This document shows positions 31,038 to 34,210 of a DNA stretch of 37,397 bases, one piece after another (within the stretch, counting starts at the first letter, position 1; each line of letters opens with the position of its first letter). The stretch is taken from IMG/VR virus record IMGVR_UViG_2563366852_000004, positions 1 through 37,397 of that record; one strand, given 5' to 3'. The stretch comes from a virus (lineage: Duplodnaviria; Heunggongvirae; Uroviricota; Caudoviricetes). The translations under genes and the position numbers were made by a program. Below the pieces are notes generated by a model, which worked only from the letters and a program-made list of their open reading frames with translations, had not been told where the DNA came from and did no database searches.

Positions 31038-31173
31038 TAGTGGCCTTTATTTTTGGCATAAATAACAGAATAAACACTGCACTGTGTATTCATTCCAACG
31101 AGTGAATACACGGAGCAATGTCGCTCGTAACTAAACAGGAGCCGACTTGTTCTGATTATTGGAAATCTTCTTT

Positions 31174-31200
31174 GCCCTCCAATGTGAGGGCAATTTTTTT
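31174..31200 (+). terminator. Intrinsic terminator within the pL operon (tL-type)
   Basis: GCCCTC-CAATGT-GAGGGC followed by AATTTTTTT on the plus strand. Confidence 0.6.
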
Positions 31201-31212
31201 GACGGAGGATAT

Positions 31213-31524
31213 ATGAAATTACGTGTCTGGCATATCCCGCAAGTACCTATGAAGCCGTTCATTGTAGAAGTGGCAAGTGTTGAAGAGGGTGTTCGCCTGA
31301 TGGACGCACTGGCTGATTATGACGCCTTTCAGTATGACAACAACATCAAGCCTGATTACTGCAATGCTAACGGCCTTGAGATGTGGGATGAGAGCCTTAC
31401 CGATGAAGATTTATCAGAGATGGGGCTTACTGATCGCTGGGTGGATTGGTACAGCGAATGCCAATGTTACGACGACCCACGTAAATATCTCGAAAGCCTG
31501 AAAGAAGAAACATCAGCCGCCTAA
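31213..31524 (+). CDS. Hypothetical protein (in the position of lambda ea10, between ral and cIII)
   Basis: ATG at 31213 with GGAGG RBS; 103 aa (MKLRVWHIPQVPMKPFIVEVASVEEGVRLMDALADYDAFQYDN...). The ORF-track 121 aa version starts upstream inside the terminator hairpin and is not preferred. Confidence 0.55.
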   Translation: MKLRVWHIPQVPMKPFIVEVASVEEGVRLMDALADYDAFQYDNNIKPDYCNANGLEMWDESLTDEDLSEMGLTDRWVDWYSECQCYDDPRKYLESLKEETSAA

Positions 31525-31734: not shown

Positions 31735-31871
31735 CCATCAATCACCAGATGCTTCGTGCAGCACAGAACAAAGCAGTAATAGCCAGATTTATTGGTGATT
31801 CAAAAATGTGGATTGAAGCAAATAAAGCGATGAAATCAGCTATCAACCTTCCGTGGTATCGCAGGAAATGA
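31719..31871 (+). CDS. kil: Kil-like protein (host cell-division inhibitor)
   Basis: Manual translation, 50 aa: MRNEIAINHQMLRAAQNKAVIARFIGDSKMWIEANKAMKSAINLPWYRRK; GGAGG RBS; the IA.FIGD.KM motif resembles lambda Kil as remembered; overlaps the cIII-like 3' end, as kil and cIII do in lambda. Confidence 0.5.
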   Translation: MRNEIAINHQMLRAAQNKAVIARFIGDSKMWIEANKAMKSAINLPWYRRK

Positions 31872-32038
31872 GTTTTACAGATAACTGGTCAGACGAAGAA
31901 TTCATTCGTCAGATGAAAGAATTAATCGGTAACGAAGGAGATATTCATGTCACTTGCAACCACAGTGAAGGAGAGCAAGTTACAGAGACGCATGTACACG
32001 CAGCAGGCGTTAATGTATCGCCAGAAGGGAGATCGTGA
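31868..32038 (+). CDS. Small hypothetical protein (start overlaps kil stop, ATGA)
   Basis: ORF-track entry 31853..32038 trimmed to the ATG at 31868; 56 aa acidic protein MSFTDNWSDEEFIRQMKELIGNEGDIHVT.... Confidence 0.4.
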   Translation: MSFTDNWSDEEFIRQMKELIGNEGDIHVTCNHSEGEQVTETHVHAAGVNVSPEGRS

Positions 32039-32116
32039 AGGTGTTCGCGTATTTTTAAATGCGGCAAAGACCGAAGTATTAAATCAGCGTTATTTACTTG
32101 GGCCGTGTCCATTCTG
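31946..32116 (+). CDS. Small hypothetical protein (overlapping the previous ORF out of frame)
   Basis: Manual translation: ATG at 31946 with AAGGAGA RBS 8 nt upstream; 56 aa MSLATTVKESKLQRRMYTQQALMYRQKGDREGVRVFLNAAKTEVLNQRYLLGPCPF; ends 9 nt before the annealase start. Confidence 0.4.
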
Positions 32117-32125
32117 AGGTGAATT

Positions 32126-32833
32126 ATGGATTTGAATAAATTCGATGAGCCATTCAGCCCTGAAGATATCGAATGGCGAATACAGCAAAGCGGTAAAACA
32201 CGCGATGGCAAAGTGTGGGCTATGGTGCTGGCTTATGTCACGAACCGGGCAATCATGAAACGCCTGGACGATGTTTGCGGCAAAGCAGGATGGCGTAATG
32301 AATACCGCGATATTCCCAACAACGGCGGCGTTGAATGCGGCATATCAATAAAGATTGATTCCGAATGGGTAACCAAATGGGATGCAGCTGAAAACACGCA
32401 GGTAGAAGCCGTCAAAGGTGGTCGTTCCGGTGCAATGAAGCGCGCTGCCGTTCAGTGGGGAATCGGTCGGTATCTGTATAACCTTGAGGAAGGTTTCGCA
32501 CAAACATCTCTCGATAAAAAGCAGGGGTGGCACAGGGCAAAACTGAAGGATGGAACAGGATTTTACTGGCTCCCTCCATCGCTGCCGGGATGGGCAATGC
32601 CAGCATCTGGCAATCAACCATCACCAGAAAATACCAACCAGAAATCTCCATCGGTTGACTGCGAACAAATCCTGAAAGACTTCAGCGATTATGCAGCGAC
32701 AGAAACTGACAAGAAAAAACTCATCGAGCGTTATCAGCGTGACTGGCAATTAATGTCTGGCAACGAGGAGGCGCAGGCTAAATGCGTTCAGGTAATGAAC
32801 ATCAGAGTTAACGAACTAAAACAGGCGGCATAA
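32126..32833 (+). CDS. Single-strand annealing protein (Rad52-like N-terminal domain fused to an Erf-type C-terminal domain)
   Basis: 235 aa; N-terminal region with AMKRAAVQWGIGRYLYN resembles Rad52/Sak-family annealases; C-terminus SPSVDCEQILKDFSDYAATETDKKKLIERYQRDWQLMSGNEEAQAKCVQVMNIRVNELKQAA is nearly identical to the P22 Erf C-terminus as remembered. Confidence 0.75.
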   Translation: MDLNKFDEPFSPEDIEWRIQQSGKTRDGKVWAMVLAYVTNRAIMKRLDDVCGKAGWRNEYRDIPNNGGVECGISIKIDSEWVTKWDAAENTQVEAVKGGRSGAMKRAAVQWGIGRYLYNLEEGFAQTSLDKKQGWHRAKLKDGTGFYWLPPSLPGWAMPASGNQPSPENTNQKSPSVDCEQILKDFSDYAATETDKKKLIERYQRDWQLMSGNEEAQAKCVQVMNIRVNELKQAA

Positions 32834-33340
32834 ATGGCAAGCAGAGGCGTAAATAAGGTGATTATCCTTGGTCGGGTAGGACAAGACCCGGAAGTTCGAT
32901 ACTCACCATCAGGAACAGCGTTCGCTAACCTGACAATAGCCACGTCAGAACAATGGCGAGATAAAAATACTGGCGAGCAAAAGGAATTGACTGAATGGCA
33001 TCGTGTTGCTGTATCCGGGAAACTGGCTGAGGTCGTGGGGCAGTATGTGAAAAAAGGTGATCAGATTTATTTCGAGGGAATGCTGAGAACCAGAAAGTGG
33101 AAAGACCAGTCAGGGCAAGACCGTTACACAACCGAGGTTCATGTCGGAATTAATGGCGTGATGCAAATGCTTGGCGGCATTGGCGACAGCAAACAACAAG
33201 CAGCCAGCAGGCAATCACAGAAGCCACAGCAGCAATCATCACCAGCACAACACAACGAACCTCCGATGGATTTTGACGACGATATCCCCTTTGCACCAGT
33301 AACTCTCCCCTTCCCTCGTCACGCTATTCACGCAATTTAA
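32834..33340 (+). CDS. ssb: Single-stranded DNA-binding protein with an extension beyond the DDDIPF tip
   Basis: 168 aa; OB-fold N-terminus ([38 protein letters not shown]), Gln/Pro-rich linker, conserved MDFDDDIPF followed by 15 extra residues ([15 protein letters not shown]). Confidence 0.85.
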
Positions 33341-33348
33341 GGACTTAC

Positions 33349-33897
33349 ATGAATCACTTGATGGTTGACCTTGAAACAATGGGCAACGGGCCATACGCGC
33401 CAGTTATTTCTATTGGGGCGGTATTCTTTGACCCGAATACCGGAGAAACAGGAGAAGAGTTCTCGGTAAATATCTCGCTTGAGTCATCAATGCGATATCG
33501 GGCGCGTCCTGACGCTTCAACGATTTTATGGTGGATGGAACAGAGTGAAGAAGCCAGAAAATCGCTAACCAGCAACACTCAAGAGCTTTCAACGGCTCTT
33601 TCATGGTTATCTGAATTCATCATAAAGAACGCCAACCACAAACTCGTTCAGGTTTGGGGGAATGGAGCATCATTTGACTGCGTTATTCTCCGCAACAGTT
33701 ATTCGCTGACAGGGCAGCCAGTTCCGTGGCAGTGGTGGAATGACCGCGACGTAAGAACAATCGTCGAACTTGGGAAGGTAATAGGATTCGACCCTAAGCG
33801 AGATATGCCATTCAAAGGAACTCGCCACAACGCGCTTGATGATGCCATTCACCAAGCCAAATACGTTTCAGCGATCTGGAAAAAGTTAGCTAAATAA
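33349..33897 (+). CDS. 3'-5' exonuclease (DnaQ-like DEDD family)
   Basis: 182 aa; N-terminal MVDLETMG (Exo I-like acidic motif) and C-terminal HNALDDA (Exo III-like) are consistent with the DEDDh fold. Confidence 0.7.
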   Translation: MNHLMVDLETMGNGPYAPVISIGAVFFDPNTGETGEEFSVNISLESSMRYRARPDASTILWWMEQSEEARKSLTSNTQELSTALSWLSEFIIKNANHKLVQVWGNGASFDCVILRNSYSLTGQPVPWQWWNDRDVRTIVELGKVIGFDPKRDMPFKGTRHNALDDAIHQAKYVSAIWKKLAK

Positions 33898-33913
33898 TCA
33901 ACAGGAGAAAACC

Positions 33914-34210
33914 ATGCCAGCGCCTCTGTATGGTGCGGACGACGCGCGCCGCTGTTCCGGCAATTCCGTATCGGAGGTGCTGGATAAATTCAGAAAAAAC
34001 TACGACCTGATAATGTCGCTACCGCAGGAAACGAAAGAGGAAAAGGAATTTCGCCACTGTATATGGCTTGCAGAGAAAGAAGAACGAGAGCGAATTTACC
34101 AGACATCAATCCGACCATTCCGCAAAGCCACATATACCCACTTCCCTGAATATATCGACCCGCGCCTGCGTAATTACCGCTCACGCTATGGCGCTATCAG
34201 TAATGACTGA
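33914..34210 (+). CDS. Hypothetical protein
   Basis: 98 aa ORF with AGGAG RBS, in the early-left operon. Confidence 0.5.

Follow-up and report, generated by a model that had tools for sequence, protein, structure and literature searches.

Gene 36 of phage epsilon34 was named Erf solely for 86% identity over the C-terminal 56 aa of its product, and the module around it was described as an Erf-tail protein, a bacterial-type SSB, a possible nuclease, and Abc2 (PMC2629481, Villafane et al.). The same paper discusses "parallel Erf domain swaps" for HK97/HK022, Sf6, and ES18, as fitting the two-domain structure of Erf; at that point it refers to Juhala 2000 (HK97/HK022), Casjens 2004 (Sf6), Casjens 2005 (ES18), and Poteete 1983, the last being its source for the two-domain structure. 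In lambda, the C-terminal domain (CTD) of the annealase Redbeta first binds lambda Exo, while resection is under way, and subsequently, at the replication fork, the C-terminal tip of host SSB; the Redbeta-SSB interaction is required in vivo (PMC11611040). Lopes 2010 and the papers presenting structural trees of the Rad52 superfamily make no mention of the Erf-tail swap.

We analysed a 37,397-nucleotide stretch of DNA from a virus of the Caudoviricetes (IMG/VR record IMGVR_UViG_2563366852_000004; hereafter, the window), in which a preliminary description had proposed a mosaic annealase, i.e., a Rad52-like N-terminal domain joined to a P22 Erf-type tail. The mosaic is real and widespread, and it was already known from the phage literature of 2000-2008. 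The gene is an ordinary phage DNA-annealing gene whose mechanism belongs to a standard class, and our overall description of it (architecture, mosaic history, and general role) is very probably correct. As an intragenic joint at a protein domain boundary it makes a clean textbook case of phage mosaicism, but biologically it brings nothing new; what modest interest remains attaches to the tail, which is portable over three core families.

The annealase gene and its recombination module

The annealase gene (32126..32833, + strand) is complete and lies exactly where the preliminary description had put it. As read from the ORF list and the sequence, it starts with an ATG preceded by a GAGG ribosome-binding site and encodes a two-module single-strand annealing protein (SSAP) of 235 aa. 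The window is collinear with P22 in its virion, lysis, nin, replication, and immunity genes and carries its early-left operon on the + strand. The annealase sits in this operon, and the phage or prophage is of the P22-like/lambdoid kind. An NCBI entry identical to the protein is titled [quoted passage not shown]. The PHROG family phrog_1097, "Erf-like ssDNA annealing protein", spans aa 1-235, and RefSeq phage records carry the same name; for this gene the "Erf-like" label rests on the tail only.

Upstream lie a gp17-like superinfection exclusion gene (31159-31524), small ORFs of the cIII/kil region, and, at the position of P22 arf, two overlapping small ORFs (31853-32038 and 31947-32117, + strand) that match Sf6 genes 30 and 29 and HK97 gp42.1 and gp42. 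Downstream, the SSB and the DnaQ-like exonuclease that had been noted as part of a recombination module are both found, together with an anti-RecBCD protein. The SSB (32834-33340, + strand; 168 aa) matches PF00436 at E 1.6e-36. The exonuclease (33349-33897, + strand) is a DEDD-type 3'-5' enzyme that matches PF16473 (Rv2179c-like) at E 5.5e-73 and phrog_255 "exonuclease"; its counterpart in epsilon34 is the homologous, collinear gene 34. Abc2 (33914-34210, + strand; PF11043, E 4e-62) is 94% identical to its counterpart in P22 and 96% identical to that in HK97, and is followed by Ead/Ea22-like genes. The annealase is most likely the SSAP of a P22-like/lambdoid recombination module with the order Arf-position ORFs, annealase, SSB, exonuclease, and Abc2.

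When the module was compared by blastn with P22, phage L, epsilon34, Sf6, and HK97, mosaic breakpoints clustered at gene or domain edges, namely at 32118-32126, 32663, 32833, about 33180-33295, 33340, and 33902-33914. DNA homology to HK97 (93%), for example, ends at nt 32118, leaving 8 nt to the annealase ATG, and sets in again precisely where abc2 starts.

Several features of the neighbouring genes were observed alongside. The exonuclease is of the 3'-5' DEDD type and not of the 5'-3' lambda-Exo/RecE type, a polarity that is unexpected for making the 3' overhangs used by an annealase. The SSB has an acidic tip, MDFDDDIPF, followed by a 15-aa extension that is also present in epsilon34 gp35. 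The last 14 aa of this extension are the C-terminus of the unrelated HNH-type endonuclease Sf6 gp26, and the last 46 nt of the SSB gene (nt 33295-33340) recur with 100% identity at the 3' end of Sf6 gene 26; the Sf6 SSB, by contrast, ends …DSDIPF. The extension has the look of a conserved sequence at a mosaic boundary. It places the SSB tip inside the protein and could thereby alter the partners that the SSB binds. Of the two Arf-position ORFs, the first has an SDEEFI motif, as does P22 Arf, and the second ends …LGPCPF (…SELPF in its epsilon34/phage L counterpart), loosely recalling the …DIPF tip of SSB. In HK97 this sequence is annotated as one 83-aa product as well, and some phages may therefore have the two frames joined.

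The annealase gene was found full-length in 93 phage records. It is 97-98% identical at the DNA level in HK75, mEpX2, mEp235, Huey, and N7, 97% in Sf6 (gene 28), 93% in ES18 (gp49), and 91-92% in epsilon34 (gene 36), g341c, ST160, and phage L. The genes described as Sf6 gene 28, epsilon34 gp36, ES18 gp49, ST64T Orf-235, phage L "Erf", and the "Rad52/22 family" genes of HK75, mEpX2, and mEp235 are one and the same 235-aa gene at 91-98% DNA identity, with the same Rad52-like core and Erf-type tail and with only point differences from the gene in the window. What follows the gene is less constant. Like the window, epsilon34 and mEpX2 have SSB, exonuclease, and Abc2 downstream, whereas phage L and ST64T have abc1 in place of the SSB and exonuclease, and Sf6 has an HNH-type endonuclease in the slot of the DEDD exonuclease. 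A protein search returned 5595 homologues, the best 120 of which all carry PF04098, mostly with full-length coverage; among the matches listed, the source genera were Escherichia, Salmonella, Cronobacter, Citrobacter, Klebsiella, Leclercia, Hafnia, Pantoea, Erwinia, and Providencia.

Two domains, a linker, and the joint between them

Residues 1-155 (32126..32590, + strand) form a Rad52-like annealing/oligomerisation domain, as judged from a Pfam match, a confident AlphaFold model, and Foldseek. The Rad52_Rad22 family PF04098 matches aa 4-136 with 91.9 bits (E 5e-26; model positions 7-153 of 153), against a curated gathering score of 20.3 bits. The ERF family PF04404 did not match the protein, even when the N-terminal part was searched in isolation at E<=1, and BLASTP against P22 Erf gave no alignment of the N-terminal part; the 23% identity between the two N-terminal domains is alignment noise. 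The preliminary description, which had read a Rad52-like domain in place of that of Erf, was therefore right on this point. Structure prediction bears it out as well, in the form of a Rad52 fold, which combines a beta-sheet crossed by a helix with a beta-hairpin. A full-length AlphaFold2 model, built on an alignment of 68 homologues, had a mean pLDDT of 84 and an alpha/beta N-terminal domain reaching to about residue 155 (pLDDT mostly 83-96), and the only significant Foldseek matches in the PDB were RAD52 (8bjm, 5jrb, 8rjw, 1h2i, and 1kn0) and Mgm101 (9yi7, 9yi9, and 9yi6), with probabilities of 0.9-1.0, E values of 3.5e-4 to 8e-3, and modest TM-scores of 0.22-0.45. Since a profile of the full-protein family found nothing among PDB sequences at E<=0.01, the Rad52 assignment rests on the Pfam HMM together with the fold match.

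The motif AMKRAAVQWGIGRYLYN occupies aa 103-119. Across the 68 homologues, K105 and R106, which lie inside GAMKRAAVQWGIGRYLY, are invariant, as is much of aa 98-118 (block G98-Y118). These two residues may correspond to K152/R153 in the ssDNA-binding groove of RAD52. Judging from Rad52 family membership and the predicted fold, the N-terminal domain would be the catalytic part of the protein, responsible for oligomerisation, ssDNA binding, and annealing, and conservation of the G98-Y118 block, K105 and R106 included, is consistent with such a role. Going by the family, one would expect it to assemble into rings or filaments, to hold ssDNA in a basic groove, and to pair complementary strands independently of ATP.

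The core is followed by a hypervariable, Pro/Ser/Asn/Gln-rich linker (aa 156-178; 32591..32659, + strand), which is disordered according to pLDDT (<50 at aa 162-175 in the full-length model). In some homologues, the linker is only 25-50% identical while the N-terminal domain is 76-95% identical; over the Rad52-core family as a whole, identity is 76-100% in the core, 25-95% in the linker, and 26-95% in the tail.

The tail itself (aa 179-235 plus stop codon; 32660..32833, + strand) is a three-helix module homologous to the tail of P22 Erf, as supported by BLASTP, by blastn (a DNA block from 32663), and by a model of the tail alone. P22 Erf (NC_002371, 27254-27871; 205 aa) matches PF04404 ERF (E 4.6e-46), and in BLASTP only aa 166-235 of the window protein align with it, at Erf residues 135-205 (47/71 identical, 66%; E 1e-30), with 77% identity over a 56-aa core. 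The C-terminal similarity thus holds against the actual P22 sequence and is far above chance, whereas "nearly identical", as the tail had been described, overstates it. In the full-length model the tail helices span residues 179-192, 196-209, and 214-234; modelled alone, the tail is a compact three-helix bundle (pLDDT 96.4) with helices at residues 3-16, 20-33, and 38-58 of that model. L183 and F186 are invariant, and W207, R227, E230, and L231 nearly invariant, across all tail subtypes, indicating purifying selection on a folded, functional unit.

At the nucleotide level, the joint is sharp. The sole DNA homology to P22 erf found by blastn was 32663-32833 (171 nt, 79% identity), and in a base-by-base alignment, read in 30-nt windows, identity rose from a background of ~35-55% to 70-87% at codon E180 (GAACAA, nt 32663), persisted through the stop codon and the next ATG, and then fell. 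The tail DNA is therefore a mosaic unit of ~175 bp, both edges of which are sharp. A second pair of phages shows the same boundary: between phage L and P22, blastn detected no DNA homology over the Rad52-type core, and homology resumed at the codon equivalent to ~180 and ran at 87% through abc1 and abc2. This restart pins the joint to the linker/tail boundary. The annealase consists of two independently exchangeable parts, a Rad52-fold domain (aa 1-155) and a tethered tail. The joint, in the linker or at its end (nt 32663), is most likely an old one at which recombination has taken place time and again; that the exchange is old is indicated by the tail DNA being only 79% identical to that of P22.

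The tail on other annealase cores

P22 Erf is 91% identical to HK97 Erf over the first 140 aa, yet their tails are 38% identical, and the divergence begins directly after the common PEQVLKAF at the start of the tail. Set against HK97 Erf, P22 Erf is thus itself a mosaic, with its joint in the same place. Since, in addition, Rad52-core proteins of Salmonella carry tails with 96% identity to that of P22, the direction implied by an "Erf tail moved onto a Rad52 core" is not readable. "P22 Erf-type", as the tail had been called, is accordingly correct as to homology and arbitrary as a name.

Besides P22, proteins with an ERF core that carry the tail were traced, by tblastn against phages among other searches, in HK97/HK022/Sf101/Stx phages, Klebsiella phage RCIP0034, Erwinia phage 49, and Morganella phage IME1369_01; PF04404 was matched by the P22, HK97, RCIP0034, Erwinia phage 49, and Morganella phage proteins. 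For all five ERF-core proteins sampled, the nearest tail was found on a Rad52-core protein and not on another ERF core, at an identity of 96% for P22, 80% for Erwinia phage 49, 68% for RCIP0034, 54% for HK97, and 49% for the Morganella phage. Where the source is recorded, nearest tails share a host group, the P22 tail pairing with that of Salmonella protein P0021; the Erwinia phage 49 tail is 75% identical to that of Erwinia sp. protein P0104, and the Morganella phage tail 47% identical to that of Providencia protein P0135. Tail subtypes do not group by core type.

A HMMER profile of the tail, run against 1.84 billion representative proteins, returned only 53 clusters, many of them short fragments. 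Where an annealase core was present, the tail was its C-terminal module, and the cores were ERF or RecT family (PF03837; P0160, P0163, P0175, P0182, and P0184), with a few evident chimeras or fragments in addition. A word-indexed homologue search with the tail alone gave just 15 fragments or partial proteins and was uninformative on the attached cores. In three proteins (P0149, P0136, and P0142) the tail stands behind unrelated N-terminal pieces: this set comprises one D12 adenine methyltransferase fragment with an HK97-type tail, one DUF1980 fragment, and one garbled N-terminus with a Rad52-core remnant. Such proteins probably stem from assembly chimeras, or from prophage genes that are frameshifted or degraded.

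Homologues of Redbeta (P0185-P0304), the cores of which are 65-78% identical, carry at least four unrelated types of C-terminal domain. One of these types ("…STMEELQAAFKAAW…") matches the tail profile with an hhalign probability of 91.7% (E 7.9e-7). The lambda-type Redbeta CTD, by contrast, has no detectable sequence similarity to the tail (hhalign probability 0.3%), and it was absent among the matches listed in fold searches. The multiplicity of CTD types on Redbeta homologues indicates that C-terminal shuffling is general in enterobacterial phage annealases and not specific to Erf. The tail is therefore a narrow-range, promiscuous C-terminal module of Enterobacterales phage annealases that occurs on Rad52-like, ERF, and RecT/Redbeta cores. 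To judge from the literature that we searched, this three-core distribution, along with the finding that all sampled ERF tails have their nearest relatives on Rad52 cores, may not yet have been set out in so many words.

Origin of the mosaic and role of the tail

An explanation of the architecture that dispenses with domain exchange is that the whole protein is a diverged orthologue of P22 Erf with a fast-evolving N-terminal part. The "Erf-like" names in PHROG and RefSeq, which apply to the protein from end to end, speak for it, as does the placement of ERF and Rad52 in one structural superfamily (PMC11783212), in which the cores are very distantly related. We nonetheless consider such orthology highly improbable, and at the family level it is refuted by the Pfam families, the identity contrast, and the step edge: the N-terminal domain scores with PF04098 but not with PF04404, which is the family that P22 and HK97 Erf match; identity to P22 Erf is near the noise in the N-terminal domain and 77% in the tail; and DNA homology sets in abruptly at nt 32663. 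Moreover, P22 and HK97 show the reverse pattern, in which the core is the same and the tail differs, and since both patterns occur, gradual divergence is excluded. If exchange is accepted, it might have been a single, recent event of illegitimate recombination in this phage or prophage that joined a P22-like erf to a gene of the Sak/Rad52 type, as the sharp boundary at 32663 and the framing of the preliminary description would have it. That is highly improbable as well and is refuted by the distribution of the gene, the identical architecture being present in the 93 phage records and among the 5595 homologues (most of those listed being full-length and from many enterobacterial genera), with the exact protein on 11 contigs and a 90%-identity cluster of n=3531; the modest DNA identity of the tail to P22 likewise speaks against a recent event. 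The domain swap inside the gene stands, with the joint at a domain boundary, but the swap is neither fresh nor local.

A different question is whether the tail contacts another protein at all. It could instead be an intramolecular or oligomerisation regulator that caps or auto-inhibits the annealing ring, or bridges rings, its exchange being neutral hitch-hiking of a short 3' segment near a recombination-prone module boundary. Both edges of the tail do coincide with mosaic boundaries, and the tail evolves faster than the core (from 95% down to 26% identity, as against 76-100%). In addition, no co-varying partner gene was found in the module. Tail type did not co-vary with Abc2, which is 91-96% identical in six phages whatever their tail type, nor with the downstream genes, the same tail occurring with abc1 (phage L) or with SSB and exonuclease (epsilon34), nor with the upstream Arf-position ORFs, since HK97 has the ORFs of the window but a different tail. 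This result points to a partner that is host-encoded or very conserved (the SSB tip, or RecBCD-Abc2), or else to a role within the annealase oligomer, and is not decisive. However, the presence of one tail family on three sequence-unrelated cores is hard to square with a specific intramolecular docking surface, and the hydrophobic or aromatic residues L183, F186, and W207, together with R227, E230, and L231, are conserved in all tail subtypes. Furthermore, in the work of Poteete, Sauer and Hendrix (1983), amber fragments of Erf without the C-terminal domain reportedly retained the ability to form rings and to bind DNA but had no activity in vivo. On balance, we regard a purely regulatory tail as improbable.

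Most likely, by analogy with the CTD of lambda Redbeta, the tail is a partner-binding adaptor. A folded tail under purifying selection on a floppy tether amounts to a docking-domain architecture: the bundle of three helices (57 aa, aa 179-235), a homologue of the P22 Erf C-terminal domain that is carried on a disordered linker of ~22 residues, would act as a protein-protein adaptor that links any annealing core to a common partner. That partner is probably host-encoded, for instance the SSB tip or RecBCD modified by Abc2; that the tail binds specifically the SSB tip is conceivable, though we would not favour it. With similar reserve, we suggest that the ~57-aa tail might be a portable docking cassette that sets partner or host specificity (e.g., for the SSB tip or Abc2-modified RecBCD) whatever the core. 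If it were, phages would reassort core and cassette freely, and a swap of the cassette could re-target recombineering annealases between hosts; were the tail to determine such specificity, it would also be of practical use in the design of recombineering proteins.

Among described annealases, the Sak protein of lactococcal phage ul36, which we take to be a member of the Rad52/Rad22 family, is likened to the window protein by family. The N-terminal domain of human RAD52 and yeast Mgm101 likewise belong to the Rad52/Rad22 family and match the predicted fold, with a sequence identity of 14-17% for RAD52; unlike Rad52, the window protein is without the eukaryotic C-terminal region that binds RPA and RAD51 and has the phage three-helix tail instead. 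P22 Erf shares with the window protein the homologous ~57-aa C-terminal domain, the two-domain layout with a linker, and the location in the early-left operon, with the arf position on one side and the abc genes on the other, whereas its N-terminal domain is ERF (PF04404) rather than PF04098 and has no alignable sequence. Lambda Redbeta (CTD, PDB 6M9K) has the same general plan as the window protein, i.e., an annealing core, a linker, and a small helical C-terminal domain; its CTD is not detectably related to the window tail by sequence, but a subset of Redbeta homologues carries a CTD that is homologous to this tail.
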